Shown here in pieces: positions 1,748 to 32,000 of a stretch of 32,000 nucleotides of DNA. The position numbers and the translations under genes are program-made. Origin of the DNA: Candidatus Methanoperedens sp. (lineage in GTDB: Archaea; Halobacteriota; Methanosarcinia; Methanosarcinales; Methanoperedenaceae); the NCBI GenBank assembly GCA_027460535.1, contig JAPZAR010000009.1, forward strand, positions 47,819-79,818, written 5' to 3'. Within the stretch, counting starts at the first letter, position 1. Each line of letters opens with the position of its first letter. The notes below the pieces were generated by a model. It saw only the letters and a program-made list of their open reading frames with translations, made no database searches and had not been told where the DNA came from.

Positions 1748-1748
1748 T

Positions 1749-2780: not shown

Positions 2781-2834
2781 CGTATCACATTTATTTAATT
2801 TTTATTCATATATTATTAATTAATTGCCCACAAT

Positions 2835-3980: not shown

Positions 3981-3983
3981 TCT

Positions 3984-5530: not shown

Positions 5531-5557
5531 TTTTGAATCCTCTTTTATGGTACCAGA

Positions 5558-8109: not shown

Positions 8110-8111
8110 AT

Positions 8112-9228: not shown

Positions 9229-9351
9229 TTTATGCATCATTGCAGTATTGAAGGATTAACCAGTGGTGGATATCCTATTGAGAATGAGATAAATCACCAA
9301 GTGGCGAAGAGAATCTCTGCCTATTATAATAAGAATAAGGAGGAAATACTA

Positions 9352-14044: not shown

Positions 14045-16786
14045 TCATTCTTTTTCTCCTTTTTCATACCCCGAGCCCCGATGGATTATCTCTCTGGCTT
14101 TATCATAAGACTTTCTTGCTTCCTCGTATTCCCCTAATTTATAAAGATCAAAACCTTTGTTATACCAGGCACTGGCATATTCAGGAGTTATCTCTATAGC
14201 TCTATCATAAGCCTTCATTGCCTCTTCGTATTTCCCACTGCTTTGAAGGGATTGGCCTTTGTTATACCAATCATCGGCAGATTCAGGAGTTATCTCTATA
14301 GTTTTTTCATAAACCTTTATCGCCTTTTTGTATTTCCTACTACCATGAAGGGCAAGAACGATGACTATCAAGGCAATTAGAATATATCCCCATGGAGGGA
14401 ATTTTGATCCAATTGTGTTTTTAGGAATTGGTACAGTGATTCTCTCTGCAGATCTAATCTGTATTTGAAGTTCCTGACTTTTCGTGCTGATCTTTCTACC
14501 TTGGGTGTCGAATTCATAGTAATCAGCAGTCGCAGATGGGAGTTTGAAGGGCAGTGTTGAACCTATTTTAACAGCATAGTTTAAACTCACTTTCTCGTTT
14601 GCCTCCAAAGGTCTTTCAAGAGTTGTATTCCCGCTGACCAGGGTCACATTATCTGGCAGCAGGTCATTGATAATCACTTTTGTGGGTGTACTTCCAGTGT
14701 TTTCAGCGATTACTGTTACGATCACAGTATCTCCGGGCCTGACAACAGAAACATCTGTCTGCTTCGTCAGTACAACCTTTGGCCCAAGCACCACAATCTT
14801 TGGCTGGTTTGATCCTATGTTGTATGATCTATTGTTTATATTGAACTCGGCAGTTGCCACCGGGAATACGATGCCCACGTTGTTTGGCTCCAGAGGTCTG
14901 ACATCATAGTGGTATTTCCATTCCCCATTGGCAGGAATATCAACCACCCAGTGCAGCGATTGGTTGCCGAGGAGCTTAAAACCGTCCGGGAGAGAATCCG
15001 TAATACTCACATTTTTAAGATCGTACGTTCCATTGTTTTTTACTGATAATGAAATGCTGGTATAATCCTTCAAATACATCGTGTCAACCGTACTCTTCCT
15101 TATGGAGAGCCCCTCTTGAGGCTCACCAAAGAGTATTGAGTTCAAAAAAATATACGCTTTGCCAAGCATTTCATATAATGTGTTAAGAGGTTCATAGATT
15201 AGCGGTGTTATAGCAGGCACAGGTGTCGCTACTGTGATTTGAGGAGTCGGTGCCGTGGGAATTATCATTACAGTAGCTGCAGGTATTGTGATTTGTGGAG
15301 TAGGTATAGGAGTTTTCTTTGCGGATTTAAGCTGTATTTCAACTTCCTGACTGCTCGTGCTTATCTTTCTACCTATGGATCCGAGTTCATAGTATTCAGC
15401 ATTTGCAGCAGGAAGGGTGATGCTCTCTTTGGAATCGATTCTAAGGATGTAGCTGAAACTAATATTCATTGTTGCTTCCAGAAATCCCCCACTCGATGTG
15501 CTGCCTCTGACCAGGGTCACATCATCTGGCAACGTGTCCATGATATTCAACCTTGTAGGAGTACTTCCTGTATTTTCTGCAACCACAGTTACAGTCACAG
15601 CATCGCCAGGGTTGAACTCTGAAACATCCGCATGCTTCGTGAGGATAATCTTTGGTCCGTATACAACAATCATCGGCTGGTTTGATCGCACGCTATAAAA
15701 TTCATTATTTACTACGAACTCAGCGGTGGCTGCGGGAAAGATGATACCCTCCTTGTTCGACTCAAGAGGTCTTACCAGATAGTGGTAGTCCCATTCCCCA
15801 TTGACAGGAATATCAACAACCCAGTGCAGCGATTGGTTGCCGAGGAGTTTAAAACCGTTTGGAAGAGAATCTGTTATATTTACATTTCTAGCATCGAGCC
15901 TTCCATTGTTTTTTACAGATAATGAAACGATGTTGTAGTCCTTTAAATACATCTTATTAACCGTGGTTTTGCTTACGGAGAGCATAACAGGAACCTCGGC
16001 TGCCATTGAAATGCTCTTTATGGACGTTGCCGTATATGGAATATTCATAACATCGTATCCGCTGACGTTTGCTGATATGCTGTGCATTTCCAGTTCTGGG
16101 AGAATGGGTGATGCAAATGTAATGGTCTCGGTGGCGGATTCCCCTATTTTAATTCTATCATAGTGATATTTTAGATTTCCCCTGTTTATTGGAAGTTCTG
16201 TGTCAATGACCATATCAACATTAACCGCATCAGCCGAGCCTGTATTTTCTAAGTTTACAGTTGCAACAATGTTTGTGGTGTATGAGGATACGTATTTATC
16301 TTTGTCCGTCTGTATCGATACCGCAAGGCTTGGAATACCTCTTGGATCCAATTCAATTACCGCCCACGGAGCATAACTTTCAAAAATCCACTCTTGTGCA
16401 TTTTGAGCAGGGAGTCCGGTTGCTGTAACTCTCAAATTACCATCAGGAACGATATACGATTCCGTCAATCGGAGGGCAGCAGTGCCTATGTAACTGCCAT
16501 TTTTTGAAATATCCAGCTCCACGAAGGGTTCAACATGTTCTTCAGGCCCTGGTCTGTATTTTGCCGATTCCACAGGTGCCGGAAATCCTATCACTTTTAC
16601 TGAATACCCATTATATGTGAGCATTTCGCCACGAATGAGCTTGTTTGACACACCCCCTGTCCACTGCAGTTGTGAACTATCAGATGTTTGGGCAAAGCCG
16701 AACCCTGAGAAAATCAAGGCTATTATGATACCACAAATCAAGCCTTTTTTCCTCTTGTCGAGAGTGGATATATTTTTAAATAACAT
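14045..16786 (-). CDS. Surface protein with DUF11/CARDB-type repeat domains, a C-terminal TM helix and a cytoplasmic TPR tail
   Basis: The ORF track start at 16813 is a GTG. ATG 16786 gives a signal peptide (MLFKNISTLDKRKKGLICGIIIALIFSGFGFAQT). The DUF11-like signature recurs (VKNNGRLDARNVNITDSLPNGF; PGDAVTVTVVAENTGSTPTRLNIMDTLPDDV). A ~219-aa two-domain module is duplicated. The C-terminus has a Pro/Thr linker, a TM helix (WGYILIALIVIVLALHG), RKYKK and near-consensus TPRs. Confidence 0.8.
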   Translation of the reverse strand: MLFKNISTLDKRKKGLICGIIIALIFSGFGFAQTSDSSQLQWTGGVSNKLIRGEMLTYNGYSVKVIGFPAPVESAKYRPGPEEHVEPFVELDISKNGSYIGTAALRLTESYIVPDGNLRVTATGLPAQNAQEWIFESYAPWAVIELDPRGIPSLAVSIQTDKDKYVSSYTTNIVATVNLENTGSADAVNVDMVIDTELPINRGNLKYHYDRIKIGESATETITFASPILPELEMHSISANVSGYDVMNIPYTATSIKSISMAAEVPVMLSVSKTTVNKMYLKDYNIVSLSVKNNGRLDARNVNITDSLPNGFKLLGNQSLHWVVDIPVNGEWDYHYLVRPLESNKEGIIFPAATAEFVVNNEFYSVRSNQPMIVVYGPKIILTKHADVSEFNPGDAVTVTVVAENTGSTPTRLNIMDTLPDDVTLVRGSTSSGGFLEATMNISFSYILRIDSKESITLPAANAEYYELGSIGRKISTSSQEVEIQLKSAKKTPIPTPQITIPAATVMIIPTAPTPQITVATPVPAITPLIYEPLNTLYEMLGKAYIFLNSILFGEPQEGLSIRKSTVDTMYLKDYTSISLSVKNNGTYDLKNVSITDSLPDGFKLLGNQSLHWVVDIPANGEWKYHYDVRPLEPNNVGIVFPVATAEFNINNRSYNIGSNQPKIVVLGPKVVLTKQTDVSVVRPGDTVIVTVIAENTGSTPTKVIINDLLPDNVTLVSGNTTLERPLEANEKVSLNYAVKIGSTLPFKLPSATADYYEFDTQGRKISTKSQELQIQIRSAERITVPIPKNTIGSKFPPWGYILIALIVIVLALHGSRKYKKAIKVYEKTIEITPESADDWYNKGQSLQSSGKYEEAMKAYDRAIEITPEYASAWYNKGFDLYKLGEYEEARKSYDKAREIIHRGSGYEKGEKE
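14078..14395 (-). other. TM helix plus ~95-aa TPR tail module
   Basis: WGYILIALIVIVLALHG-SRKYKK-AIKVYEKTIEITPESADDWYNKGQSLQSSGKYEEAMKAYDRAIEITPEYASAWYNKGFDLYKLGEYEEARKSYDKAREIIHR. The basic residues right after the TM helix imply a cytoplasmic tail. Confidence 0.8.
14453..15985 (-). repeat. Internal duplication: two ~219-aa modules offset by 873 bp
   Basis: aa 277-497 (15323..15985) and aa 569-787 (14453..15109) of the track protein align colinearly. Examples: MYLKDYNIVSLSVKNNG... vs MYLKDYTSISLSVKNNG...; LHWVVDIPVNGEW vs LHWVVDIPANGEW; GRKISTSSQEVEIQLKSA vs GRKISTKSQELQIQIRSA. Confidence 0.85.
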
Positions 16787-16869
16787 CTTTGGATAACTTA
16801 ATAATTCTAACACTCATGCTTTTGCACGTAGTTCCCAATTTCCTTGACTTTGGTGCAAACAATACTGCT

Positions 16870-18052: not shown

Positions 18053-19648
18053 ATGAAAGGAAATTATAAAATTGGAATTGCAGTTTTACTGTTGGTTACG
18101 ATAACAGCAGCGTCGGCAGCTACACAGATCGGAGACAATATAACTGTTGCGAATAACGTCACAGCACAGAACTTTATAGGTAATTTAAATTGGGCATATT
18201 TATTAGGAATTCCTACAGATTTTCCGAACTCGACAGCGGTAACAGCAAACAATACAGCGAATGGTGCTGTTCAAACTTCGCTTTATAATGGCGACTTCCC
18301 GAATACCTCTTTGCCGAATTATCTTTTGATTTCAACATACGGTACCGACTTCCCGAACTTGACAGCAGTAACAGCAAACAATACAGCGAATGGTGCTGTT
18401 CAGACTTCGCTTTATAATGGCGACTTCCCGAATACCTCTTTGCCGAATTATCTTTTGATTTCAACATACGGTACCGACTTCCCGAACTCGACAGCAGTAA
18501 CAGCAAACAACACAGCGAATGGTGCTGTTCAGACTTCGCTTTATAATGGCGACTTCCCGAATACTTCCTTGCCGAATTATCTTTTGATTTCAACATACGG
18601 TACCGACTTCCCGAACTCGACAGCAGTAACAGCAAACAACACAGCGAATGGTGCTGTTCAAACTTCGCTTTATAATGGCAACTTCCCGAATACCTCTTTG
18701 CCTAATTATCTTTTGATTTCAACATACGGTACCGACTTCCCGAACTCGACAGCAGTAACAGCAAACAACACAGCGAATGGTGCTGTTCAAACTTCACTTT
18801 ATAATGGCAACTTCCCGAACAGTTCTGTCCTGACAAAAGAACCGGCAATCACAGGCTCAACCTCAAATACTTTTTGGAATGGATTAAAACAATTTGTTAC
18901 TCTATCAAGCGGATTGATTACTGATTTTTCAGCAGCGGTAAGAACAAATATATCAGCAACAGGTAATGCTACTTACAACTCAGCCACCGGAGTGATTGAT
19001 GCTCTTACCAATATAACAGCAGTAAGGACTTCAATATCAGCAACAGGCAATGCTACTTATAATTCATCGACTGGTGTAATTGACGCATTAACTAACATCA
19101 CTGCAGTAAGGAATTCAATATCATCAAGCAGCGGGCTTGTATCTTATAATTCTTCGACAGGAGTAGTATCGGATAGCATCAATTCATCTGCAAATCTGTA
19201 TAATATAAATGGCAGTAATGTAACAAGTGGCAAAGTAAATAGTCAATTCCTTAATATAACCAATATTACGTCGTATTTATCTAGTAATAAAGTTACACCA
19301 AACAACAACGTATACGTTGTCGGGCCTACCATAAATCTTCAAGCCGGCACATGGTTTCTTAATGGAGGAGTTACAGTATCCGAAGTCGGAGGTGCTGGTT
19401 CACTAAAAGTAGTAACGTGTAATATGTCACAAGGTGGCACAAATGTAATATCTTCAGGTGAAGCTGCTAGCAATGCCGTACCAGCGGTAATCCAATTGTC
19501 CGGGCTTATATCCCTTAGTTCACCAGCTACCGCACAGATTGCTTGTGCCGGTGGTGCTCAAAATGCAACTATCTATGCGGCTGTACCTGATAATGCTGGA
19601 GGAGCAGGAAATACTGCAAGCTATATTACAGCGCTAAGGATCGGATAA
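18053..19648 (+). CDS. Secreted repeat protein, tail-fibre/adhesin-like
   Basis: cGGAGGA Shine-Dalgarno 7 nt upstream. Signal peptide MKGNYKIGIAVLLLVTITAASAATQ. The protein has 4.7 x 43-aa repeats and 3 x 28-aa repeats (AVRTxISATGNATYNSxTGVIDALTNIT). The C-terminal ~130 aa is Gly/Ala/Ser-rich, probably a beta domain, and ends ASYITALRIG. Confidence 0.75.
   Translation: MKGNYKIGIAVLLLVTITAASAATQIGDNITVANNVTAQNFIGNLNWAYLLGIPTDFPNSTAVTANNTANGAVQTSLYNGDFPNTSLPNYLLISTYGTDFPNLTAVTANNTANGAVQTSLYNGDFPNTSLPNYLLISTYGTDFPNSTAVTANNTANGAVQTSLYNGDFPNTSLPNYLLISTYGTDFPNSTAVTANNTANGAVQTSLYNGNFPNTSLPNYLLISTYGTDFPNSTAVTANNTANGAVQTSLYNGNFPNSSVLTKEPAITGSTSNTFWNGLKQFVTLSSGLITDFSAAVRTNISATGNATYNSATGVIDALTNITAVRTSISATGNATYNSSTGVIDALTNITAVRNSISSSSGLVSYNSSTGVVSDSINSSANLYNINGSNVTSGKVNSQFLNITNITSYLSSNKVTPNNNVYVVGPTINLQAGTWFLNGGVTVSEVGGAGSLKVVTCNMSQGGTNVISSGEAASNAVPAVIQLSGLISLSSPATAQIACAGGAQNATIYAAVPDNAGGAGNTASYITALRIG
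18221..18825 (+). repeat. In-frame tandem repeat, 129-bp unit x ~4.7
   Basis: Unit starts (ttcccgaact) fall at 18221, 18350, 18479, 18608 and 18737, an exact 129-bp spacing. Only a few substitutions separate the units. The encoded unit is FPNSTAVTANNTANGAVQTSLYNG(D/N)FPNTSLPNYLLISTYGTD. Confidence 0.9.
18935..19186 (+). repeat. In-frame tandem repeat, 84-bp unit x 3
   Basis: Units begin at 18935, 19019 and 19103 (gc[g/a]gtaag[a/g]...). The third copy is more divergent. Confidence 0.85.
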
Positions 19649-19689
19649 GGTTTGGTCTTTGATGGATAAACTTGTCATATAAAAATAAT

Positions 19690-22600
19690 ATGAGACTGTT
19701 TATTTATTTGATAGGCATTGCATTGATAATCGGAGTAGCTTCGGCTGACGTCAGCATTGTAGACGACACTCTTTTCAACCTCGGCAATGGTGCCTTCATT
19801 AAAGTCCTTGCAGTCCAGAACTCGACAAACATCACCGTATACAGTTCAACAAATTCACCGGCATCCACGCTCCAGTTTTACATCAACGGCACAGCGATAA
19901 GATTCACCGCAAACACCAATAAAACGCTCTCAAATATTTCTTATGATAATGCGACCGATGTCGTAACATACACCGGGAATGGCACTGATGGCTATCTCAA
20001 TGTATCGACGCGAATGCAAGTATCATCGGTAAATTATGGATTGAAGGTTGACGGAGTTGTTGACCAAAGGCAACAATCCAATGCTACCGGGTGGGTGACA
20101 TTCAATTACACAGGATGGAGCCCGAATCTGCATGTCTTTGAAATATCGAATCGAACATATATTCCTCCAGCACCCACGAACCTGATCAATGTCAGCGATA
20201 ACTTTTATGTGAACCACAGCTGGCAGGCAGGATCAGGAAACATAACGGATTCGTACAATGTAAGCGTCAATGGTACCTGGCATAATGGTGCAAACAGTAC
20301 CTATTACAATAATTCAGGTTTAGCTCCACACGGCTGGAGCAACATCTCGGTATATTCATACAACAGTTCAGGTACAGGCACGATGAACACCACGGCTGTA
20401 TCCCAGAACACCCGGGTCCCGGATAATCCAGTAACGATAACTAATATTTCAGATTCATATAATCTCAATGACAGTGAGACTCTTTACATAGCTGCGAATT
20501 GCACTGACATAGACGGCGACACATGCATTTTTAATAGGAATTTCACTCAAGGGACATTCGATTCATCTACGGGAATACTCAACTGGCAGGCAGGATACGG
20601 AAATTATAGCTGGCAGATTAACGTCACTGATGGGTTTGGTTCAGTTTCCAGGAAGAATTTCACAGTTGCGGTAAACGACATCCACCCCCCATCGCAGGTA
20701 ACTAATTTTCATAACTCTACCATCCCAACTGCGGATTCAGTCAATGTTGCATGGAACGCAAGCAATGACGGTGCAAACGGCTCTGGGATTAAGGAATACA
20801 GAATTGAGCGAACCAATGAATCGTTCAATTACATGACCATTGATAGGCCCATAATAAATGCAACTGGAATAGCATCGGGGTACGAGAACGATTCTTACTG
20901 GTATACTTTCAAGACCAATGAACCGGTTAACTGTCAGGGATGCCACGTCAATGGAAGGACGAGAATAGGCAATTTCTGGACCAAATACAATACAACGTAC
21001 CTCTACGTGATGGTGCATGCACCGGATAACGACACAAATATAAGCGATGATAACATAAGTCTTGCATTCGACGTGAACAGGGATAGTGGCACAGCTCCGC
21101 AGCCGGATGACCAGATGTATGAAATTACTGAGCAGAACAACCTTCTCCGCTATACAGGCAACGGCACAGATTGGGTCGCAAACAGTACCAGTGCTGTAAG
21201 TGCCGTAGCGGGTGCAGGTTCAAAAGCGCCAGTATATGAGATAAGAATTCCACTATCTGAAATAGGCAGCCCTTCTAATAACACGCCTATAAATTTCTTA
21301 TTTGAGAACGTATGTACCGGCAGCGGTGATTTTATAGAGAGGCACACATATTTCCCGAAAAACCCAAACGCCAGCGAAAAGGATCCAAGTTCGTGGGGAT
21401 TGATAACATTCAGGAGCCTCACGGATTATGTTCAGATAGCCAATCCATCAGGAACTTCTTATATGATTGCGGATCTAAAGGATGGTTTCAGGTATGACTT
21501 CACAGCTAAGGCCGTGGATAATGTCGGCAATACAGGTCAGCGTTCAGACCCATTGATTATTCAGACTGCGGGAGATCTCGGTTACAATATCTCAGGGTAC
21601 GTTTTTAATTACCTTGGAAATCCAATACCAAATGTTCGTGTCCAGACGCCCAAAGACTATATCGTAAGTTCGCATTCAAATGGCGATTATTTCTTAGAAG
21701 AGCTGATTAATTTTACTTATGATGTTACTGCAAGCAGCGGAGTTTACAGCAGCGATATCACACAAGTTACAGTAAATGGCGCTGATGTTCATAATGTCAA
21801 TATCACAATTCCGCATATTACAGTAAACGCCACAGACTTGGTCACTGCATGCGGGAATTTCTATTGCAACTCAACATGGACTGCTGGAGGTAACACTACA
21901 TCGTTTAATATAAGCCAAAATGAAACCTGGTATAATGGCACTACCAATAATTATTTTAACGTCTCGATCAGCCCGCATGAATACAGCAATATCACAGTGT
22001 CTGGTTACAATGACTATACGACAGCTCTTAGTATTGGAAGTGTAACGCAGAACACTTCAATCCAGAACAATCCTGTTACAATAGGCAACATATCAGATAA
22101 CTATTCATTGATCGAAGGGCAAACCCTCATCATATATCCAAATTCAACCGATGCGGACAGTGACACTCCGACGTTTGCCAGGAATTTCACGAACGGTACG
22201 TTCTACACGAATAACGGCACAATGCTCTGGACGACTACGGGCAGCGATATAGGCATTCATTCCTGGCAGATAAACGTGACTGATGGGTATGGTTCGGTTT
22301 CCTCTGCAAATTTCACGGTAACCGTGAATTCATTCGAAGTGAGCCTGACAAATATATCTGCTTTAACAAATACTACTTTTGCAGGAACAAATGCGATCTA
22401 TATTCTCAATCTGACCAATAACGGTACAGCAGGAGCGGATACGTATAATCTCACGATCGATAATACAAACGGAGCATCCGCTTCCTTGAACGTCTCCCCG
22501 GATTTTGTGTATGTGCCTCAAGCCGGAAGCGTAATATTCGCACTCAATGTAACCAATGCATCGTCAGGAATATTCCGTGTCAATGTCACAGCAACCTCGG

Positions 22601-25600
22601 TGAATAACTCAAATAAGATTGCATACATCAATACCACAACGACTGTGAATGCTGTCAGGGCAGTCAGCCTGAGTGTGGATCCTACTGCAAGGACCACATC
22701 AGCTGGAACCAATGCAACCTACGTACTCAACATCACCAACAACGGCAGCGACCCGGATACCTATACTCTCCTTGTAACCAATGCCAGCAGTGCCTCCGTA
22801 GCATTGCTGAACATCTCCTCCCCAACATCCACGCTCGGTTCAGGTCAGAGCCTGATCCTCGCCCTTAACGTCACCAATACCTCTTCAGGCACATTCCTTG
22901 TGAATGTAACCGCAACCTCAAGCAGCGATGCCACGAAATTCGCCTATGTCAATACCACAACGACTGTGAATGCGGTCAGGGCAGTTAACCTGACCGTAAA
23001 TCCAAGCGAACAGGCAACATCCACAGGCACCAATGCCACCTATCTCCTCAACCTCACCAATAACGGTACTGATGCAGATACCTATACTCTCGTCGTTACT
23101 AACGCAAACAATGCATCAACCGCTTTGTTGAATACCTCATTGAGCCAGAGCCTGAATGCAGGGCAGAGCCTGATATTGGCTCTTAACGTGACCAATTCAT
23201 CAGCAGGTTCAGGTACTTTCAATGTAAATGTAAGTGCCACCTCAAGCGATCCTACTAAGTTCGCGTTCGTCAATACCACAACGACTGTGAATGCGGTCAG
23301 GGCAGCCAACCTGACCGTAAATCCAGGCGAACAGGCAACATCCACAGGCACCAATGCCACCTATATCCTCAACCTCACCAATAACGGTACTGATGCAGAT
23401 ACCTATACTCTCCTTGTAACCAATTCCAGCAGTGCCTCCGTAGCATTGCTGAACATCTCCTCCCCAACATCAACGCTCAGTCCGGGTCAGAGCCTGATCT
23501 TCGCCCTTAACGTCACCAATGCCTCTTTGGGCACATTCCTTGTGAATGTAACCGCAACGTCAAGCAACGATGCCACGAAATTCGGCTATGTCAATACCAC
23601 CACGACTGTGAATGCGGTCAGGGCAGTCAGCCTTACAGTAAATACAGCCGCCCAGACAACATCTGCCGGAACCAATGCCACCTACGTACTCAACCTCACC
23701 AATAACGGTACTGATGCAGATACCTATACTCTCCTTGTAACCAATTCCAGCAGTGCCTCCGTAGCATTGCTGAACATCTCCTCCCCAACATCCATGCTCA
23801 GTCCGGGTCAGAGCCTGATCTTCGCCCTTAACGTGACCAATACCTCTTCGGGCACGTTCAAGGTGAATGTAACCGCAACCTCAAGCAGCGATGCCACGAA
23901 ATTCGCCTATGTCAATACCACAACGACTGTGAATGCTGTCAGGGCTGTTAGTTTAAGCATAGATGCTCCTTCAAAGGACACCGATGCCGGCGTGAATGCC
24001 ACCTACGTGCTCAATCTTACCAATAACGGCAGCGACCCGGATTCCTATGCCTTGCTGGTAACCAACGCGAGCAATGCCTCTGTAGCGGCTCTCAATATCT
24101 CCTCGCCCACTTCTACGCTCAGTCCGGGTCAGAGCCTGATCTTCGCCCTTAACGTGACCAATACCTCTTCGGGTACGTTCAAGGTGAATGTAACCGCAAT
24201 CTCGCAGGGCAACAATTCGAAGTTCGCCAGCGTGAATACCACAACTGTGATGGGTGCTATCCGGGGTGTCAGTTTAAGCATAGACGCTCCTTCAAAGAGC
24301 ACCGACGCCGGCGTGAATGCCACCTACGTGCTCAATCTTACCAATAACGGTACTGATGCGGATACCTATACTCTCCTTGTAACCAATTCCAGCAGTGCTT
24401 CCGTAGCATTGCTGAACATCTCCTCCCCAACATCCACGCTCGGTTCAGGTCAGAGCCTGATCTTCGCCCTTAACGTCACCAATACTTCTTCGGGTAACTT
24501 CAGCGTCAATGTAACCGCAACCTCAAGCATCAATGCCACAAAATTCGCCTATGTCAATACCACAACGGCTGTGAATGCGGTCAGGGCAGTCAGCCTGACC
24601 ATCAATACAACTGCCCAGACAACATCAGCCGGAACCAATGCCACCTATATCCTCAACCTCACCAATAACGGTACTGATGCAGATACCTATACTCTCATCG
24701 TTACTAACGCAAACAGTGCCTCAACCGCTCTTCTGAATACCTCATTGAGCCAGAGCCTGAATGCAGGACAGAGTGTTATATTCGCCCTTAACGTCACCAA
24801 TACCTCCTCAGGCACATTCCTCGTGAATGTAACCGCAACCTCAGGCAACGATGCCACAAAATTCGCCTATGTCAATACCACCACGATTGTGAATGCAGTC
24901 CCGACTTACATACCTCCGACCCCGACAGATTTATCGAGCACTCAGGGTAATTTCTGGATAAACTACACATGGAGTGCAGGGAGCGGGAGCGTAACGGATT
25001 CATACAATGTAAGCGTCAACGGCACATGGCATAACGGAACAAACAGTACCTATTACAATAATTCAGGTTTAGCTCCACATGGCTGGAGCAACATCTCGGT
25101 CTATTCCTTCAACAATTCAGGCACGGGCACGCTGAACAGCACTGCCGTATCCCAGAACACCCGGGTGCCGAACAACGTACCTGTCCAGGCATCGATCGGC
25201 AACAAGAACGTGTACGAGAACGAGACATTGAGCTTCACGGTCTCTGCAACAGACGCAGACGGCGATACCATGACCTTCGGCACCAATGCATCAAAAGGCA
25301 GCCTCAATACAACAACAGGCTTATTCACCTGGACGCCCACGTTCGGGGACTCAGGGATTTACGTCTGGTACTTCAATTCAAGCGACGGGTACGAAGGTAT
25401 AGCGACTGAAACCATAACAGTGACCGTGAACAATATCCCATTAACAATCACCTCGCGTTCACCCGGCACCGACCCGACCACAATCGTAGATACAGGTCAG
25501 ACCTTCACTGTAAACCTGAACAGGAGTGCAAACGTCACCTGGTACATCAACGGCATATCTGTCCAGGGAAACACCAGCATAACCTCGGCAAGCTATACCA

Positions 25601-28600
25601 ACCTAACTTCCGGTGTGGGTGTGCATAACCTAACAGCAATGGTATCCGATGCTTTCGATACCACTCCAACCATGTGGAACTGGACTGTAACTGCATTCCC
25701 GACCCACATGCCCCCGACCCCTTCCAATCTTACCAGCAGCACAGGATATTACTTCGTGAACCACAGCTGGCAGGCAGGAGACGGGAACGTAACGGACAGC
25801 TATAACGTCAGCGTAAACGGCACATGGCAAAACGACACGACCGGTACCTATTACAACAATTCAGGGTTGTCTGCACACGGTTGGAGCAACATCTCGGTCT
25901 ATTCCTTCAACACTTCAGGCACAGGAGCCCTTAACGAAACCCCGGTAACCGCAAATACCCAGGTTCCCAACAACGTTCCTGTCCTCACACCAATCGTAGA
26001 TAAAGTCGTGACTGCAGGCATCTGGCTGAATTTCACAGTCGTTGCGACGGATGCAGACGGCGATCCTTTAACCTACGGCACCAATGCCACCAGGGGAGCA
26101 CTCGATCCTGCATCAGGTAACTTTAACTGGTCAACCACAGGCAGCGATGTGGGAACCTATGTGTGGTACTTCAGCTCAAGTGATACCTACGGCGGTGTTG
26201 CATCAGGAACAATAACAGTGACCGTGACTGCTGCTCCCACGTATCTCCCGCCAAGCCCGGTGAACCTTGCCAGCACCACAGGGAATTTCTATGTCAACCA
26301 TACCTGGAATGCAGGCTCAGGAAACGTAACCCACAGCTATAAAGTGAGTGTGAATGGTACATTTCAAAATATTGGGTTGAACTGGAGTGCTGGTATCCCA
26401 GTGGGAGTTGGTATTCTTGCATTGACTTATGCTGGAAACGGAACTGTTATCGCTGGTGATTACTCTAATGGTAATATTTATCGTTCAACAGACTATGGTC
26501 AAACCTGGGGTGCTGGTATTTCAGTTGGAAGTAGTATTGGTGGACTAACCTATACTGGCAACGGGGTTATTATCGCTGCTGATAGCAATAACGGTAATAT
26601 TTATCGTTCGACAGACTATGGTCAAACCTGGAGTGCTGGTATTCCAGTCGGGAGTGCTATTTTTGAATTGACGTATGCTGAAAACGGAACAGTTATCGCT
26701 GCTGATAGCAATAACGGTAATATTTATCGTTCAACCGACTATGGTCAAACCTGGAGTGCTGGTATTCCAGTTGGGAGTGTTTATTATGCATCGACTTATG
26801 CCGGAAACGGAACTGTTATCGCTGGTGATTATGCCAATGGTAATATTTATCGTTCCACAGACTATGGTCAAACCTGGAGTGCTGGTATTCCAGTCGGGAG
26901 TAGTATTGGTGTAATAACCTACGCTGGAAACGGAATTGTATTCGCTGCTGATAGCAATAACGGTAATATCTATCGTTCAACCGATTATGGTCAAACCTGG
27001 AGTGCTGGTATTCCAGTCGGGAGTGTTATTTTTGCATTGACTTATGCAGGCAACGGAATTGTTATCGCTGGTGAGGACAGTGACGGTGATATTTATCGTT
27101 CAACCGACTATGGTCAAACCTGGAGTGCTGATATTCTAGTCGGGAGTGGTATTGATGGGATAATCTATATTGGAAATGGAATTGTTATCGCTGGTGATTA
27201 CAAAAACGGTAATATTTATCGTTCGGATCCTACCTATACTACGCATACCTATTACAACAATTCAGGGTTGTCTGCACACGGATGGAGCAACATCTCGGTC
27301 TATTCCTTCAACAATTCAGGCACAGGAACCCTTAACGAAACCCCGGTAACCGCAAACACCCAGGTTCCCAACAATCCGGTCTCGATAGGGAATGTATCGA
27401 GCAGCTACACATTAACCGCGGGTGACATGTTATCGATATATCCGACTTCGAGCGATCTGGACGGCGACACTCCCACGTTTGCCAGTAATTTCACCAACGG
27501 TACGTTCTACGCGAATAACGGCACACTGTTCTGGACGACAACGGGCAGCGATGAAGGCATCCATTCCTGGCAGATAAACGTGACAGACGGGTACGGGTCG
27601 GTCTCCTTTGCAAATTTCACGGTAACCGTGACCGCAGTACTTGCACCCAACATCACTTCCTGGGGCAATAACAAGACCAACAATGAGAGCTTGACTTTAA
27701 CCCTGAACAATAGCGAAGGCATAAGGTTCAATGCCACTGCAAACCAGAGTATAACCACATGGACATGGTTCCAGGACGACGTTAACCAGAACAATAACTA
27801 TGACAATTTCTCAACCAGCCTCACTGGCGGAAATCATACCATTAAAGTCAATGCAACCAATGGTAACGGGGTAAGCAATACTATTACCTGGATTGTTACG
27901 ATAACTCCAACGCCAACCATCTCACCGGTAATCACAGGCTTTGCTCCTTCTTCGCCCGTAATTGATATCGTGGGTGCAACTAGAACCTTCAACATCACCG
28001 TTAACCAGACCGTGAACGTAACCTGGTATGTCAACGGAACGCAGGCTCAGACAAATACGAGTGTGACTAATGCAGGTTATACCAACGCCAGTGCAGGACT
28101 TGGCGTATGGAACGTAACAGCCACTGCAGCCAATTCCAATGGTGTCGTATCACAGGTATGGATATGGAATGTGACAGCAGCACCGAGTGGAGCACCTAAC
28201 ATAACCAGTTTTGCTCCTTCTTCGCCCGTAAATGATATCGTGGGTGTAACTAGAATATTCAACATCACCGTTAACCAGACCGTGAACGTAACCTGGTACA
28301 TCAACGGAACGCAGGCTCAGACCAATATCAGTGTGACCGATGCCAGTTATACCAACACCAGTGCAGTCCTTGGAGTATGGAACATATCAGCAAATGCAGC
28401 CAATTCCAATGGCGTTGTTTCACAGGCGTGGATCTGGAACGTGACAGCAGCCCCGACAGGAACACCTAATATAACCAGTTTTGCCCCGGCTTCGCCTGTA
28501 AACGATATCGTGGGTGCAACTAGAACATTCAACATCATCGTTAACCAGATCGTGAATATAACATGGTACATCAACGGAACTCAGGTTCAGACAAGTATGA

Positions 28601-29715
28601 GTGTGACCGGTGCCAGTTATACTAACACCAGTGCAGTCCTTGGAGTATGGAACATAACAGCCACTGCAACCAATTCCAATGGTGTTGTATCACAGGTATG
28701 GATGTGGAACGTGGCAGCAGCACCAACCCCGGCACCCACTCGGAAATCTGTTACCGGCGGCGGTGGGGGTGGCGGAGGTGGAGAAGGCGCAAAATCCTCG
28801 GAACCGCCCATAAACATTGAGTCGTTTGAGCTTGCGGAACAATACTTAGGAGCAAATACTCCTGCCTCTTATATATTCACTACACCAAACCTTGTAATTT
28901 CTGAAGTGTTAATAACTCCTGCAAGGAACTTTGGAACTACAAGCATAAGAATAGAAACGCTCAAAAATTTATCAAACAGAGAAGGGATGACACCACCCCC
29001 AGGAATTGTTTATAAATATGTTAATATCTGGGTCGGTGCAGGGGATATCGATAGTCCAGACAGCATCATAGACGCATTCATAGGGTTTGAAGTCGATCGC
29101 GGCTGGCTTGCGCAGAATAACCTTGAGGAGAATAATATAAGACTTCTTAGATGGGACGGAAGCAAGTGGAACTCGCTGGATACTCAGCCAACGAGCAGTG
29201 ATGAAACATTCGCATATTATTATTCAAGAACCAACGCATTCTCGCCTTTTGCAATAGTTGCCCTTCCCCTTTATCCATCTGCCACAGCTCAGGCAGGCGA
29301 AACTCCAATAACAGAGGCTCCAATGCAAGAGCTAATAAAACAGTTGGCGGTAGAACGGGTATCCTGGCTGTGGATGTATGCATTAATTGCTTTGATACTT
29401 ATCAGCCTTGCCCTTTATAAATTAAGTAAATACCAAAAAAAGGCAATTAAAGTTTATGAAGCTGTGGCGATAAAGCCAGAGAATGCCGATGCATGGTATG
29501 GTAAAGGCGCCGAGCTTCAGGAGATAGGGAAATACGAAGAGGCAATAAAATCTTATGATAAGGCTATAGAGATAAATCCAGAATATTCCAATGCTTGGAA
29601 TAACAAAGGTTTTGCCCTCTATGAATTAGGGAAATACGAAGAGGCAGCAAAGGCATATGATAAAGCAAGAGAGATAATCCATCGAAGCAGGCAATCGGAT
29701 GAGGACTCTTTATGA
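19690..29715 (+). CDS. Giant (3341-aa) modular surface glycoprotein with a PGF-pre-PGF domain, TM helix and cytoplasmic TPR tail
   Basis: The ORF track start at 19672 is a TTG. ATG 19690 gives the signal peptide MRLFIYLIGIALIIGVASA/DV. Modules, read by eye, in order: five FN3-like plus cadherin-like/He_PIG pairs (acidic DxDxDGD motifs); an FN3 with a CBM9-like insert; a CarboxypepD_reg-like domain; eight 107-aa CARDB/NEW3-like repeats; a seven-unit Asp-box propeller; five NVTWYING-type Ig-like modules; a G9 linker; a PGF-pre-PGF domain; TM; TPRs. Confidence 0.9.
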   Translation: MRLFIYLIGIALIIGVASADVSIVDDTLFNLGNGAFIKVLAVQNSTNITVYSSTNSPASTLQFYINGTAIRFTANTNKTLSNISYDNATDVVTYTGNGTDGYLNVSTRMQVSSVNYGLKVDGVVDQRQQSNATGWVTFNYTGWSPNLHVFEISNRTYIPPAPTNLINVSDNFYVNHSWQAGSGNITDSYNVSVNGTWHNGANSTYYNNSGLAPHGWSNISVYSYNSSGTGTMNTTAVSQNTRVPDNPVTITNISDSYNLNDSETLYIAANCTDIDGDTCIFNRNFTQGTFDSSTGILNWQAGYGNYSWQINVTDGFGSVSRKNFTVAVNDIHPPSQVTNFHNSTIPTADSVNVAWNASNDGANGSGIKEYRIERTNESFNYMTIDRPIINATGIASGYENDSYWYTFKTNEPVNCQGCHVNGRTRIGNFWTKYNTTYLYVMVHAPDNDTNISDDNISLAFDVNRDSGTAPQPDDQMYEITEQNNLLRYTGNGTDWVANSTSAVSAVAGAGSKAPVYEIRIPLSEIGSPSNNTPINFLFENVCTGSGDFIERHTYFPKNPNASEKDPSSWGLITFRSLTDYVQIANPSGTSYMIADLKDGFRYDFTAKAVDNVGNTGQRSDPLIIQTAGDLGYNISGYVFNYLGNPIPNVRVQTPKDYIVSSHSNGDYFLEELINFTYDVTASSGVYSSDITQVTVNGADVHNVNITIPHITVNATDLVTACGNFYCNSTWTAGGNTTSFNISQNETWYNGTTNNYFNVSISPHEYSNITVSGYNDYTTALSIGSVTQNTSIQNNPVTIGNISDNYSLIEGQTLIIYPNSTDADSDTPTFARNFTNGTFYTNNGTMLWTTTGSDIGIHSWQINVTDGYGSVSSANFTVTVNSFEVSLTNISALTNTTFAGTNAIYILNLTNNGTAGADTYNLTIDNTNGASASLNVSPDFVYVPQAGSVIFALNVTNASSGIFRVNVTATSVNNSNKIAYINTTTTVNAVRAVSLSVDPTARTTSAGTNATYVLNITNNGSDPDTYTLLVTNASSASVALLNISSPTSTLGSGQSLILALNVTNTSSGTFLVNVTATSSSDATKFAYVNTTTTVNAVRAVNLTVNPSEQATSTGTNATYLLNLTNNGTDADTYTLVVTNANNASTALLNTSLSQSLNAGQSLILALNVTNSSAGSGTFNVNVSATSSDPTKFAFVNTTTTVNAVRAANLTVNPGEQATSTGTNATYILNLTNNGTDADTYTLLVTNSSSASVALLNISSPTSTLSPGQSLIFALNVTNASLGTFLVNVTATSSNDATKFGYVNTTTTVNAVRAVSLTVNTAAQTTSAGTNATYVLNLTNNGTDADTYTLLVTNSSSASVALLNISSPTSMLSPGQSLIFALNVTNTSSGTFKVNVTATSSSDATKFAYVNTTTTVNAVRAVSLSIDAPSKDTDAGVNATYVLNLTNNGSDPDSYALLVTNASNASVAALNISSPTSTLSPGQSLIFALNVTNTSSGTFKVNVTAISQGNNSKFASVNTTTVMGAIRGVSLSIDAPSKSTDAGVNATYVLNLTNNGTDADTYTLLVTNSSSASVALLNISSPTSTLGSGQSLIFALNVTNTSSGNFSVNVTATSSINATKFAYVNTTTAVNAVRAVSLTINTTAQTTSAGTNATYILNLTNNGTDADTYTLIVTNANSASTALLNTSLSQSLNAGQSVIFALNVTNTSSGTFLVNVTATSGNDATKFAYVNTTTIVNAVPTYIPPTPTDLSSTQGNFWINYTWSAGSGSVTDSYNVSVNGTWHNGTNSTYYNNSGLAPHGWSNISVYSFNNSGTGTLNSTAVSQNTRVPNNVPVQASIGNKNVYENETLSFTVSATDADGDTMTFGTNASKGSLNTTTGLFTWTPTFGDSGIYVWYFNSSDGYEGIATETITVTVNNIPLTITSRSPGTDPTTIVDTGQTFTVNLNRSANVTWYINGISVQGNTSITSASYTNLTSGVGVHNLTAMVSDAFDTTPTMWNWTVTAFPTHMPPTPSNLTSSTGYYFVNHSWQAGDGNVTDSYNVSVNGTWQNDTTGTYYNNSGLSAHGWSNISVYSFNTSGTGALNETPVTANTQVPNNVPVLTPIVDKVVTAGIWLNFTVVATDADGDPLTYGTNATRGALDPASGNFNWSTTGSDVGTYVWYFSSSDTYGGVASGTITVTVTAAPTYLPPSPVNLASTTGNFYVNHTWNAGSGNVTHSYKVSVNGTFQNIGLNWSAGIPVGVGILALTYAGNGTVIAGDYSNGNIYRSTDYGQTWGAGISVGSSIGGLTYTGNGVIIAADSNNGNIYRSTDYGQTWSAGIPVGSAIFELTYAENGTVIAADSNNGNIYRSTDYGQTWSAGIPVGSVYYASTYAGNGTVIAGDYANGNIYRSTDYGQTWSAGIPVGSSIGVITYAGNGIVFAADSNNGNIYRSTDYGQTWSAGIPVGSVIFALTYAGNGIVIAGEDSDGDIYRSTDYGQTWSADILVGSGIDGIIYIGNGIVIAGDYKNGNIYRSDPTYTTHTYYNNSGLSAHGWSNISVYSFNNSGTGTLNETPVTANTQVPNNPVSIGNVSSSYTLTAGDMLSIYPTSSDLDGDTPTFASNFTNGTFYANNGTLFWTTTGSDEGIHSWQINVTDGYGSVSFANFTVTVTAVLAPNITSWGNNKTNNESLTLTLNNSEGIRFNATANQSITTWTWFQDDVNQNNNYDNFSTSLTGGNHTIKVNATNGNGVSNTITWIVTITPTPTISPVITGFAPSSPVIDIVGATRTFNITVNQTVNVTWYVNGTQAQTNTSVTNAGYTNASAGLGVWNVTATAANSNGVVSQVWIWNVTAAPSGAPNITSFAPSSPVNDIVGVTRIFNITVNQTVNVTWYINGTQAQTNISVTDASYTNTSAVLGVWNISANAANSNGVVSQAWIWNVTAAPTGTPNITSFAPASPVNDIVGATRTFNIIVNQIVNITWYINGTQVQTSMSVTGASYTNTSAVLGVWNITATATNSNGVVSQVWMWNVAAAPTPAPTRKSVTGGGGGGGGGEGAKSSEPPINIESFELAEQYLGANTPASYIFTTPNLVISEVLITPARNFGTTSIRIETLKNLSNREGMTPPPGIVYKYVNIWVGAGDIDSPDSIIDAFIGFEVDRGWLAQNNLEENNIRLLRWDGSKWNSLDTQPTSSDETFAYYYSRTNAFSPFAIVALPLYPSATAQAGETPITEAPMQELIKQLAVERVSWLWMYALIALILISLALYKLSKYQKKAIKVYEAVAIKPENADAWYGKGAELQEIGKYEEAIKSYDKAIEINPEYSNAWNNKGFALYELGKYEEAAKAYDKAREIIHRSRQSDEDSL
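20932..20946 (+). other. CXXCH motif (CQGCH), candidate covalent haem c site
   Basis: tgt cag gga tgc cac is in frame. It uses two of the seven Cys I counted by eye in the 3341-aa protein. It lies ~25 aa before the CBM9/DOMON-like core (TYLYVMVHAPDND). The motif is certain; the function is speculative. Confidence 0.35.
22342..24900 (+). repeat. In-frame tandem array, 8 x ~321 bp (107-108 aa CARDB/NEW3-like domain)
   Basis: Unit starts fall at 22342, 22666, 22987, 23308, 23629, 23950, 24271 and 24592. The conserved core is GTNATY(V/I/L)LNLTNNGTDADTYTL...ALNVTNTSSGTF.VNVTATS...KFAYVNTTTTVNAVRAV. Confidence 0.95.
26380..27230 (+). repeat. In-frame tandem array, 7 x 123 bp (41-aa Asp-box/BNR blades)
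   Basis: ggt(aat/gat)at(t/c)tatcgttc recurs at 26470, 26593, 26716, 26839, 26962, 27085 and 27208, an exact 123-bp period. The unit is SAGIPVGS.I..LTYAGNG.VIA.D..NGNIYRSTDYGQTW, and STDYGQTW fits S-x-D-x-G-x-T-W. Confidence 0.95.
27925..28734 (+). repeat. In-frame tandem array, 3 x 270 bp (90-aa Ig-like module)
   Basis: Units start at 27925, 28195 and 28465. The unit is P(N/V)IT.FAP.SPV.DIVGATRTFNITVNQTVNVTWYINGTQAQTN.SVT.A.YTNTSA.LGVWN.TA.A.NSNGVVSQVW.WNVTAAP. More divergent copies lie at ~25435 and ~27640. Confidence 0.9.
28798..29265 (+). other. PGF-pre-PGF domain (TIGR04213-like) of the giant protein
   Basis: SEPPINIESFE...VYKYVNIWVGAG...IGFEVDRGWLAQNNLEENNIRLLRWDGSKWNSLDT...AFSPFAIVA is colinear with 10501..10950 in the PGF-CTERM protein. 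Both domains are preceded by a poly-Gly linker. Confidence 0.75.
29365..29690 (+). other. TM helix plus TPR tail module
   Basis: WLWMYALIALILISLALY-KLSKYQKK-AIKVYEAVAIKPENADAWYGKGAELQEIGKYEEAIKSYDKAIEINPEYSNAWNNKGFALYELGKYEEAAKAYDKAREIIHR. By my hand alignment it is ~70% identical to the tail of the 14045..16786 protein. Confidence 0.8.
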
Positions 29716-29906: not shown

Positions 29907-30164
29907 GTGGGAAATTATAAGAACTTACGGAAAGCATTGCTGCATAAAAGCGATACTGTTGCGCATTTGGCCATAGACCTTCTCAGGAAAATCAAAGAGG
30001 AAGATCAGAAAATTAAGGAAATAGAGCAACTCACGCAAAAGGGAACGAATCTCCAGATACAAAATGTGAGTTTTTTATGCACAATATTGAAAAAAATCAA
30101 AGAAGATCGACATCCAATTTTAATGAGCATTAAAAAGATAGAAAAGTATAATAGCATGACATGA
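29907..30164 (+). CDS. Hypothetical small protein (85 aa), paralogue of the previous ORF
   Basis: GTG start. KALLHKSDTVAHLAIDLLRKIKEEDQKIKEI aligns with NALQHKSKDATYVSLDVLRLIREAEDKVKRL. Confidence 0.3.
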   Translation: MGNYKNLRKALLHKSDTVAHLAIDLLRKIKEEDQKIKEIEQLTQKGTNLQIQNVSFLCTILKKIKEDRHPILMSIKKIEKYNSMT

Positions 30165-30498: not shown

Positions 30499-32000
30499 AT
30501 GAAAAATAGAAATATTAAAAAATATAGAATCTTGAGACAAAGTGTGATGATCTCGATTATATTTTTCTCAATAGTAGTTTCTATCAATGCGGCAAGTGCT
30601 GTCGATAAAACGTACTACTGGACCCCATCGTCAGGAGCTATAGGTTCGTCAGGATTTACAGCCGACTGGGGAAATTGTAATGCTAAACCAACTTCTTACA
30701 GAATCACTACGCTCACCAGTACAGGATTCACATGCCTCAGCGATTATTTGACAAAGACTACATCTGGCGACCAGTATCTGGCAATTTATCCTACAGCATA
30801 TAGTTCTGATACTAAAATAGCAGGCAAAACAGGTGCTACTTTTTATTTGTCAAGTCAAAAGGCCGGCTATACTGCAACATATCGCTTTGATATGGGATAT
30901 GCTGTGGGAGGCACTTTTACATCATTGGGATATGTGACACAGAGTTCTTATAAAGGTAAAAACAATATCATAAATCTGAGTAACATTAGCGGTACCGCCC
31001 CCGCGGGATCATATCTTGCATTGAAAGTCTCGGTAACAACTTCAAAGGGCGGAAGAGTAAATCTGGGAACAAATGGTGGTTCTACCGGCTCAAACAGCGG
31101 CCGTTTCTATGTTACAGAGACCGCTGCAGCACCTACCCCGTTAAACGGAACGAGTCTGACAAATATAACACCACTCACCCAGTCAACTGTTGCTAGCGTG
31201 AATGCCACCTACGTGCTCAACCTCACCAATACCGGCAGTCTGACAGATAACTATATACTCACAACCTCAAATTCAGGCAGTGCACTTATTGGTCTGAATA
31301 TTTCATCGCCAGTGATGCTGGCTTCAGGAGCAAGCCAGATATTCCGTCTGAACGTTACAAAAGCGTCTGCAGGCAAATTCAATGTCAACGTCACAGCCAC
31401 ATCGCAGAATGATCCAACCAAGGTTGCGTTCGTAAATACCACAACCAATGTTACAGTGACCGCACCGCCGTTAAACGGTACGAGTCTCACCAATGTGACT
31501 TCGCTCAGCGCAACAGTGGTTGCTAGCGTGAATGCCACCTATGTGCTCAACCTCACCAATACCGGCAGTCTGACAGATAACTACATACTCACAACCTCAA
31601 ATCCAGGCAGTGCACTTATTGGTCTGAATATTTCATCGCCAGTGATGCTGGCTTCAGGAGCGAGCCAGATATTCCGTCTGAACGTTACAAAAGCGTCTGC
31701 AGGCAAATTCAATGTCAACGTCACAGCCACATCACAGAATGATCCAACCAAGGTTGCGTTCCTAAATACCACAACCAATGTTACAGTAACAGCGCTCGGA
31801 GCACCTAATATAACCAGTTTTGCTCCGCCTTCGCCTGCAAATGATATCGTGGGTGCAACTCGAACATTCAGCATCACCGTTAACCAGAGCGTGAACGTAA
31901 CCTGGTATATCAACGGAACTTTGGTTCAGACAAATACGGGTGTGACTAATGCCGGTTATACCAACACCAGTGCAGGACTTGGCGTATGGAACATAACAGC
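30499..32000 (+). CDS. Secreted modular surface glycoprotein, N-terminal 500 aa (continues beyond the right edge)
   Basis: Absent from the ORF track because there is no stop in the window. I translated 30499..31998 and found no stop codon. GGAGG at 30489..30493 lies 5 nt before the ATG. Signal peptide: MKNRNIKKYRILRQSVMISIIFFSIVVSINAASA. After a unique ~180-aa N-terminal domain come two 110-aa CARDB/NEW3-like repeats and an APNITSFAP...NVTWYING module homologous to those in the giant protein. Confidence 0.85.
   Translation, partial: MKNRNIKKYRILRQSVMISIIFFSIVVSINAASAVDKTYYWTPSSGAIGSSGFTADWGNCNAKPTSYRITTLTSTGFTCLSDYLTKTTSGDQYLAIYPTAYSSDTKIAGKTGATFYLSSQKAGYTATYRFDMGYAVGGTFTSLGYVTQSSYKGKNNIINLSNISGTAPAGSYLALKVSVTTSKGGRVNLGTNGGSTGSNSGRFYVTETAAAPTPLNGTSLTNITPLTQSTVASVNATYVLNLTNTGSLTDNYILTTSNSGSALIGLNISSPVMLASGASQIFRLNVTKASAGKFNVNVTATSQNDPTKVAFVNTTTNVTVTAPPLNGTSLTNVTSLSATVVASVNATYVLNLTNTGSLTDNYILTTSNPGSALIGLNISSPVMLASGASQIFRLNVTKASAGKFNVNVTATSQNDPTKVAFLNTTTNVTVTALGAPNITSFAPPSPANDIVGATRTFSITVNQSVNVTWYINGTLVQTNTGVTNAGYTNTSAGLGVWNIT
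31141..31800 (+). repeat. Tandem duplication, 2 x 330 bp
   Basis: 31141..31470 and 31471..31800 differ mainly in the first ~45 nt. After that I see only about six substitutions. Confidence 0.95.

Follow-up and report, generated by a model that had tools for sequence, protein, structure and literature searches.

Locus and host gene

The window analysed here is a 32,000-nucleotide (nt) stretch of a Candidatus Methanoperedens sp. contig (JAPZAR010000009.1, positions 47,819 to 79,818 of the forward strand); all coordinates below are those of the window. It carries the gene of a giant surface protein in which one copy of a small beta-sandwich module is interrupted by a predicted seven-bladed Asp-box propeller. 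A single + strand open reading frame (ORF), 19672-29715, covers the whole region of repeats and insert, with a likely ATG start at 19690. The 3,341-amino-acid (aa) product, P0272, is identical over its full length to NCBI MCZ7355925.1 / MCZ7370663.1, where it is named 'PGF-pre-PGF domain-containing protein [Candidatus Methanoperedens sp.]'. A word-indexed homologue search and an exact contig look-up both missed the giant protein despite the identical P0272, so absence from such look-ups is no evidence of absence for very long proteins.

From N- to C-terminus the protein consists of a signal peptide, immunoglobulin (Ig)/fibronectin type III (FN3)-like and other beta-sandwich modules, a PGF-pre-PGF domain, a transmembrane helix and a cytoplasmic TPR tail. 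TIGR04213 matched with 129.9 bits (E 7e-38) against a cut-off of 28, which places the protein in the PGF-pre-PGF family. 223 N-x-S/T sequons were counted. Judged from its sequence, the host looks like a giant, glycosylated, membrane-anchored surface protein. Its features outside the modules of interest are the following.

19690-29715, + strand: gene of the 3,341-aa host surface protein (ORF and domain matches)
19690-19746, + strand: predicted signal peptide MRLFIYLIGIALIIGVASA (by reading the sequence rather than with a predictor)
22628-24900, + strand: 321-bp (107-aa) tandem array of beta-sandwich repeats inside the giant gene (Tandem Repeats Finder, TRF)
28804-29262, + strand: PGF-pre-PGF domain (TIGR04213)
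29365-29418, + strand: predicted transmembrane helix WLWMYALIALILISLALY (by reading the sequence)
29431-29688, + strand: C-terminal TPR repeats, presumably cytoplasmic (Pfam TPR_1, E 4e-18)

The fifth module is split by an insert

The host protein contains four intact copies of an Ig/FN3-like module of ~95 aa and an interrupted fifth copy. A profile hidden Markov model (HMM) of the module was built from the intact copies and used to place all five.

20143-20427, + strand: module 1, intact (module HMM positions 2-101, E 3e-53; Pfam fn3 E 0.0079, 16.8 bits)
21808-22071, + strand: module 2, intact but divergent (module HMM positions 3-101, E 3e-41)
24892-25176, + strand: module 3, intact (module HMM E 3e-52; Pfam fn3 E 0.034)
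25690-25974, + strand: module 4, intact (module HMM E 5e-51; the loop at the point equivalent to the insertion is DTTG)
26227-26370, + strand: left half of split module 5, ...SYKVSVNGTFQN (HMM positions 2-51)
26371-27246, + strand: insert in place of a 4-aa loop, consisting of the Asp-box propeller IGLNW...IYRSD (26371-27228) and a linker PTYTTH (27229-27246)
26383-27243, + strand: seven 123-nt (41-aa) units within the insert, starting at 26383, 26506, 26629, 26752, 26875, 26998 and 27121
27247-27375, + strand: right half of split module 5, TYYNNSGLSAHGW...QVPNN (HMM positions 53-100)

Intact modules read ...SYNVSVNGTW(H/Q)N-xxxx-TYYNNSGL..., and the fifth copy reads ...SYKVSVNGTFQN / IGLNW...IYRSDPTYTTH / TYYNNSGLSAHGW.... 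The junctions in the protein are ...VSVNGTFQNIGLNWSAGIPVG... and ...NIYRSDPTYTTHTYYNNSGL.... The module HMM aligns to copy 5 in two pieces, positions 2-51 to aa 2178-2227 (E 6e-19) and positions 53-100 to aa 2517-2564 (E 1.3e-22), with a gap of 289 aa between them. Because the match falls into two pieces, the insertion is objective and confined to a single loop, corresponding to C'-E should the module have the FN3-type sandwich fold. Both halves are free of frameshifts and stops. In P0126, which is 58% identical over ~490 collinear residues upstream, the module at the collinear place is uninterrupted and reads ...VSVNGSWMN-GTTS-TYYNDT.... The initial annotation, made from the sequence alone, had proposed that a whole Asp-box propeller lies in a loop of a fifth FN3-like copy whose intact paralogues stand elsewhere in the protein. 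The HMM split at 2-51 / 53-100 and the uninterrupted P0126 bear this out. Its figure of about 288 aa for the insert is not exact, the actual size being a propeller of 286 aa plus the 6-aa linker.

The term Ig/FN3-like needs qualification. Pfam fn3 matched the intact modules, and copy 5 with the insert removed, at 13.4-16.8 bits (E 0.008-0.095), below the cut-off of 25, although these matches are near full-length (profile positions 2-79 of 84). fn3 matched 5/33 members of the module family at E <= 0.1. With the 33-sequence family profile the only solved relative was Ig-like domain 1 of T4 Hoc (E 0.0011). Since the fn3 scores stay below the cut-off, 'Ig/FN3-like' is a description and not Pfam fn3 membership; the earlier label 'FN3-like' is good in that sense, with 13-17 bits against 25. 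An exhaustive profile search found the module in 569 proteins, 133 of them at E <= 1e-30, whereas the word-indexed homologue search with an intact module returned zero candidates. The few family members with a named source are Methanoperedens or ANME-2. 'HSWQAG' in the module resembles 'NWSAG' of the blades, and MAFFT repeatedly misplaced the half-modules.

The insert is a predicted seven-bladed Asp-box propeller

The repeat structure of the insert is very regular. TRF reported a 123-bp array at 26382-27224 (6.9 copies, 80% matches, 1% indels, score 1034), and a repeat search gave a start-to-start spacing of exactly 123 nt five times. Together with the translation, these results agree with the seven 41-aa units at an exact 123-bp period described in the initial annotation. 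Its statement that every unit ends in STDYGQTW holds for six units. Unit 7 ends in IYRSD, followed by PTYTTH-TYYNNSGL, so that the seventh Asp-box is interrupted by the host module.

A repeat of this kind in a short-read metagenome assembly could be a chimeric join or a miscounted array. Two other arrays at the locus do vary between assemblies. The 321-bp array has one unit fewer in the European Nucleotide Archive (ENA) assembly, where the giant product is 3,234 aa instead of 3,341 aa. A 129-bp tandem repeat at 18224-18819 (4.6 copies, 97% matches) lies in a gene for a secreted repeat protein (18053-19648, + strand), which is 531 aa long as encoded in the window but measures 488 aa in both L017 and L018 and only 402 aa in L019, a difference in copy number between assemblies or populations. 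Against this, a 1,152-nt region is 100% identical in NCBI contig L017 and ENA MEGAHIT contig L018 although these other arrays differ, and the same propeller array is present in three assemblies. The units are 12-33% diverged and thus distinguishable by ordinary reads, the insert leaves the reading frame intact, and its two junctions lie at a single module loop. We therefore consider an assembly artefact very improbable.

Pfam matches to the insert all exceed their cut-offs (BNR_6 62.5 bits; BNR 53.2 bits, cut-off 27; Sortilin-Vps10 48.2 bits, cut-off 33). With six exact copies of STDYGQTW, they identify an Asp-box (BNR) propeller motif. AlphaFold2 (AF2) was run on a 384-aa query with 28 trimmed propeller homologues. 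Residues ~50-340 of 384 were modelled at a predicted local distance difference test (pLDDT) of 94-98, with a predicted template-modelling score (pTM) of 0.80 and the same strand pattern seven times. A Foldseek search of the PDB placed the seven-bladed Ycf48 at the top (E 1e-13, template-modelling score (TM) 0.75, ~304 aligned columns, 19-20% identity), followed by seven-bladed WD40 domains. The insert is thus predicted by the model to be a closed seven-bladed Asp-box propeller, as had been suggested initially.

Asp-box propellers with n blades never have n boxes, they close by a 1+3 Velcro arrangement, and their Asp-boxes sit opposite the active or binding face (Quistgaard & Thirup 2009, PMC2716378). 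Six boxes in seven blades, the N-terminal strand '(L)NWSAGIPV' and the C-terminal 'IYRSD' fit both the n-1 rule and the 1+3 closure (PMC2716378), in line with the first reading of the NW-SAG start and IYRSD end as signs of a closed ring. According to the DSSP strand pattern of the model and the 1+3 Velcro rule, structural blades are offset from the sequence units: residues 9-41 of a unit form a blade with the following unit's residues 1-8 (W-SAGIPVG, strand 4), and for blade 7 it is unit 1 that supplies the closing residues 1-8. Blade columns 10-14 and 25-29 are variable; the Asp-box, the GNG turn and the strand cores are invariant.

The likeness to Ycf48 is structural only. Membership of the Ycf48/PSII_BNR family was rejected, with PF14870 at 24.5 bits against 27 and NCBIfam PRK13684 at 26.2 against 326. 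Membership of the 'F510_1955 family glycosylhydrolase' (NF045728) was rejected as well: the model matched at 107.8 bits (E 5e-31) over profile positions 74-212 of 246, below its cut-off of 175. The match itself, as far as it goes, would suit a surface-displayed Asp-box glycoside hydrolase rather than a binding module, and most characterised Asp-box propellers are glycosidases (PMC2716378). However, 41-aa blades leave almost no loops for an active site. No blade-specific conserved set of acidic, Arg and Tyr residues is visible in the insert, and the variable positions differ from blade to blade. Minimal blades, a glycosylhydrolase model below its cut-off and the non-catalytic nature of Ycf48, the nearest fold, make a binding role more likely than an enzymatic one, which we rate as quite improbable.

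Origin of the insert

887 propeller homologues were detected. The closest, P0001-P0003, are 55-66% identical and are free-standing proteins of 380-480 aa. Their propeller starts with 'DIGKNWSAG' and ends with 'IYRSD(I/V)xY', which the insert borders 'NIGLNWSAG...IYRSDPTY' match. The relatives have seven blades (P0001, P0003, P0004, P0007 and P0009), six (P0002) or four (P0047). Blade length across them is 38-48 aa, so that 41 aa, at first taken to be at the short end, is normal for this family. Beside P0002, a gene fragment at L027 1920-2288 holds a single blade between 'QDIGKNW' and 'IYRSDIAYK'. P0002, P0047 and L027 lie on short metagenome contigs, and their blade counts could reflect collapsed repeats.

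The insert also differs from its surroundings in composition. GC content at third codon positions (GC3) is 0.28 in the insert and 0.50-0.69 in the flanks, with a step at both borders; the genes of free-standing relatives have a GC3 of 0.23-0.38. Sequon density drops five-fold, from 7.5 per 100 aa elsewhere to 1.4 in the insert. As far as sequence can tell, insert and host point to different origins. The matching borders, the GC3 step, the sequon drop and the uninterrupted P0126 together suggest that a ready-made multi-blade domain was acquired from the free-standing family.

Divergence among the blades is considerable. Pairwise nucleotide identity of the units is 67-88% (mean 79%), and amino acid identity is 56-85% in fixed register, or 61-85% (median 76%) over shared length. 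By the Nei-Gojobori method, blades 1-6 have a mean synonymous divergence (dS) of 0.37 and a mean nonsynonymous divergence (dN) of 0.15, with a between-blade dS of 0.14-0.65. The blades had been described as near-identical, and their amplification or gene conversion as necessarily recent. A DNA difference of ~21% and a dS of ~0.37 contradict the first description and do not support the second, and the closest free-standing homologues of the domain already have 6-7 blades.

We wondered how much of the array was made in place. One blade or a short fragment might have been inserted and recently amplified to seven, or ongoing gene conversion might keep the blades alike. The period of exactly 123 bp with no indels between units would be expected from such a process. 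At a mean identity of 73%, the blades of this protein are more alike than those within any relative compared (36-67%), and each of blades 1-5 finds its best match inside its own protein. The single-blade fragment in L027 and the four blades of P0047 are also in keeping with growth from few blades. Conversely, the 12-33% DNA difference and the dS range given above are large for it. The last blade is distinct, its best outside match being the last blade of P0002, and 6-7 blades with the same termini are already present in the free-standing relatives. The pattern of similarity favours a three-blade step over a single-blade one: units at lag 3 are 87% identical versus 81% at lags 1-2, and TRF gives 85% matches for a period of 369 versus 80% for 123. 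Such recent amplification or upkeep in place is, in our judgement, unlikely. Because the closest free-standing homologues have 6-7 blades and the same termini, the sequences make it most likely that the propeller was acquired as a multi-blade domain, followed by at most one three-blade (369-bp) duplication, which is hinted at because units three apart are most alike. Some homogenisation or duplication of blades in place is likely from the same comparisons.

Some observations weigh against an origin wholly from outside. The inner blades are closer to each other than to any outside blade, and some amplification in situ is thus possible. The seven blades go back to few ancestral codons, which makes the GC3 contrast equivalent to about one sample of 41 codons (about 3 standard deviations). 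A low GC3 (0.30-0.36) is also seen in some other genes of the window.

Scans of genome and metagenome contigs returned only distant propellers, mostly bacterial and 24-46% identical, and no second nested copy. Across the 443 instances of the module counted in the family's 150 best representatives, Asp-boxes occur only in this protein and its 3,234-aa variant. A viral tail-fibre or receptor-binding origin, suspected from the N-terminal 'HNDLQNRD..HP' of the free-standing homologues, is not supported. PHROGs gave only phrog_8700, of unknown function, and P0009 lies among ordinary chromosomal genes.

Does the split module still fold?

The two halves of module 5 differ in their relation to module 4. 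The left halves are 67% identical in amino acids and 68% in nucleotides, and the left half of module 5 has a GC3 of 0.50. The right halves are 96% identical in nucleotides (27247-27372 versus 25846-25971), with both ends of the identical tract exactly on the borders of the half-module. We read this, on the alignment, as a probable short gene-conversion tract between modules 4 and 5.

One possibility is that the insertion destroyed module 5, leaving its halves as linkers and the propeller as a further bead in the row of domains. Recent gene conversion from module 4, and not selection for folding, may indeed explain why the right halves are nearly identical. In the nested AF2 model, which had no alignment depth in the flanks, the halves were left unassembled, with a pLDDT of 49-78 on the left and 36-55 on the right. 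This low confidence is uninformative because the intact module by itself failed too, at pLDDT 30 with a 4-sequence alignment (the module and three paralogues). Other evidence goes against a broken module. Both halves match the profile strongly and in frame, and the 1+3 closure puts the chain ends at one hairpin position, a geometry that allows nesting. Ig-like split domains that fold around their guests are documented (PMC12077191). Inserts of 240-270 aa in another loop are accommodated by other members of the module family, with three cases in P0142 alone. Loss of the module fold therefore appears rather improbable.

Proposed architecture

The evidence taken together probably describes a complete seven-bladed Asp-box propeller set in one loop of module 5, acquired as a multi-blade domain and presented as a side-mounted binding head. 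A ready-made multi-blade domain would have arrived from the free-standing 'IGxNW...IYRSD' propeller family. Its inner blades would later have been partly duplicated or homogenised, with a three-blade, 369-bp duplication as one likely step. The host module would take the place of the seventh Asp-box hairpin, so that the chain enters and exits the propeller there, on the bottom (Asp-box) face. Because the chain would enter and leave at one point, the half-modules could still pair into one sandwich, with the propeller budding sideways off the stalk.

On canonical blade topology the variable columns would map to the D-A and B-C loops, that is, to the top face opposite the Asp-boxes. With the chain's entry and exit placed at the Asp-boxes, the variable side would be turned outward from the stalk. 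That the termini are adjacent and the faces so oriented was derived from topology and not from coordinates, which tells against this part of the proposal. By analogy, the propeller is a putative non-catalytic ligand-binding head for a glycan or a protein.

Comparison with known systems

The insert shares with other Asp-box propellers S-x-D-x-G-x-T-W once per blade in the strand 3-4 hairpin, n-1 boxes and the 1+3 Velcro closure (PMC2716378). Such propellers are characteristically irregular (PMC2716378), whereas every blade here is exactly 41 aa, which is unusually regular and minimal. The insert is moreover nested in another domain rather than free-standing or in tandem. Ycf48/HCF136, a photosystem II assembly factor (PDB 2xbg, 5ojr), is the best structural match and also has seven blades. 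Unlike Ycf48, the present domain is extracellular, belongs to a non-photosynthetic archaeon and shares only 19-20% identity with it.

Highly repetitive propellers have been surveyed by Pereira & Lupas (2022, PMC9218822), who report Asp-box members and Euryarchaeota among them. The median blade identity of 76% in the insert exceeds their 60% criterion. With a dS of ~0.37 it is not at the near-identical extreme of their WRAP example, which has no synonymous changes. Inserted propellers are not mentioned in PMC9218822.

The closest parallel in design is the split domain of bacterial RTX adhesins, where a ligand-binding domain with adjacent termini sits within the sequence of an Ig-like stalk domain (PMC12077191, PMC10865825). 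The binding site of the guest is farthest from the junction and is thought to be projected away from the stalk (PMC12077191). Common to both systems is a giant fibrillar surface protein with a whole guest domain inside one of its Ig-like stalk domains, as evidenced here by the HMM split and P0126. The guests in PMC12077191 are a carbohydrate-binding module (CBM), an RTX beta-roll and a vWFA (von Willebrand factor A) domain; a propeller guest is not mentioned there. The present host is archaeal and has a Sec signal peptide, a PGF-pre-PGF domain and a transmembrane anchor instead of type I secretion, and its module belongs to a different sequence family. Family scans of the host protein listed no RTX repeat family. 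Because the host is archaeal and not of the RTX/type I secretion kind, it is not a member of the RTX split-domain units despite the like design.

Surface-layer proteins of Methanosarcinales reportedly carry YVTN propellers and PKD domains arranged in tandem. They resemble the present protein in being large, in coming from related archaea and in combining propellers with Ig-like domains. Here, in contrast, the propeller is nested and belongs to another propeller family. The insert is no new kind of system: its propeller family is already documented, as are highly repetitive propellers and ligand-binding domains nested in others.

A second type of insert in the same module family

Six other module instances, in P0129, P0142 (three times), P0204 and P0247, carry a different insert of 238-269 aa in another loop, at about profile position 33-36.

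P0129, aa 468-807: region with the second insert type
P0142, aa 27-368, 620-965 and 1043-1403: regions with the second insert type
P0204, aa 20-362: region with the second insert type
P0247, aa 15-355: region with the second insert type

In most instances the second insert is made up of five ~49-aa repeats, WYLISGxxxGxFxGYNWTGSxWQSDSxIxSGLxDxGxxSxPTVFxKDGT; 2/3 of the copies in P0142 are more degenerate. A Pfam scan of this insert type gave no match. A profile comparison of the 49-aa repeats with the Asp-box blades showed no relationship (hhalign probability 1.4%). Against PDB sequences the only match was a GH62 arabinofuranosidase at a non-significant E of 7.4. GH62 enzymes are five-bladed propellers, and the 49-aa-repeat domain could, from its sequence, be one too. 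The same domain is also free-standing in archaeal surface proteins of ~400 aa (P0282, P0284, P0297).

The six inserts of this type and the propeller suggest that grafting of repeat domains into this module is recurrent. The stalk module of Methanoperedens (ANME-2d) may tentatively be seen as an evolvable 'socket' into which different beta-repeat heads were plugged independently in at least two loops, though we hold this with less than even confidence. The idea is based on the propeller at positions 51/53, the five-repeat domain at ~33-36, and the free-standing occurrence of both types of head.

Neighbouring genes

The giant gene stands among other genes for surface proteins. Two large surface proteins, encoded at 14045-16813 (- strand) and, with its end at 29365-29715 (+ strand), by the giant gene itself, terminate alike in a transmembrane helix, 'KKAIKVYE' and TPR repeats. 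The TPR tail reads ...AWYNKG...GKYEEA...KAREIIHR in both. From its sequence, this common tail suggests a cytoplasmic docking module shared by the two proteins. A 635-aa surface protein (9232-11139, + strand) has a Gly/Tyr-rich stretch GYGYDFNTGVGYNFGYGYGYG and the C-terminus '...PGFEMVTSLAALTVLITVFLRDRKRR', which we take to be a PGF-CTERM-type sorting signal of the kind recognised by archaeosortase. A further surface-protein gene (MKNRNIKKYRIL...) starts at about 30492 (+ strand) and runs past the window end at 32000. It has a 330-bp repeat at 31189-31787 (97% matches) and ends with a repeat like the 270-bp array of the giant gene at 27940-28724 (APNITSFAP.SP.NDIVGATRTF.ITVNQ.VNVTWYINGT).

Just upstream of the surface-protein genes, 341-9050 (- strand) encodes glycosyltransferases, an NAD-dependent epimerase and two B12-binding radical SAM enzymes. 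This cluster may supply glycans for the sequon-rich surface proteins. The adjoining MfnA gene (12090-13223) has an exact match in Ca. Methanoperedens records. An exact look-up of a small ORF at 29907-30161 gave no record.

Implications

The protein offers a clean natural case in which a small beta-sandwich has received a whole propeller in one of its loops, and both parents are identifiable. The parents are the intact paralogous modules and the free-standing propeller homologues, and the scars at the junctions, the GC3 step and the sequon drop, are still visible. These properties recommend it for work on how domains become inserted and how such insertions are tolerated. The finding suggests that archaeal surface proteins, too, evolved the design of bacterial RTX adhesins in which a binding head is presented by a split stalk domain. 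If the socket idea is true, the module would be an archaeal, independently evolved counterpart of the RTX split-domain system and would let surface binding specificity be swapped through domain grafting. The propeller points to a specific region of this surface protein as the probable site of contact with partners, minerals or polymers. Such contacts could be of importance to Methanoperedens, whose lifestyle depends on extracellular interactions.

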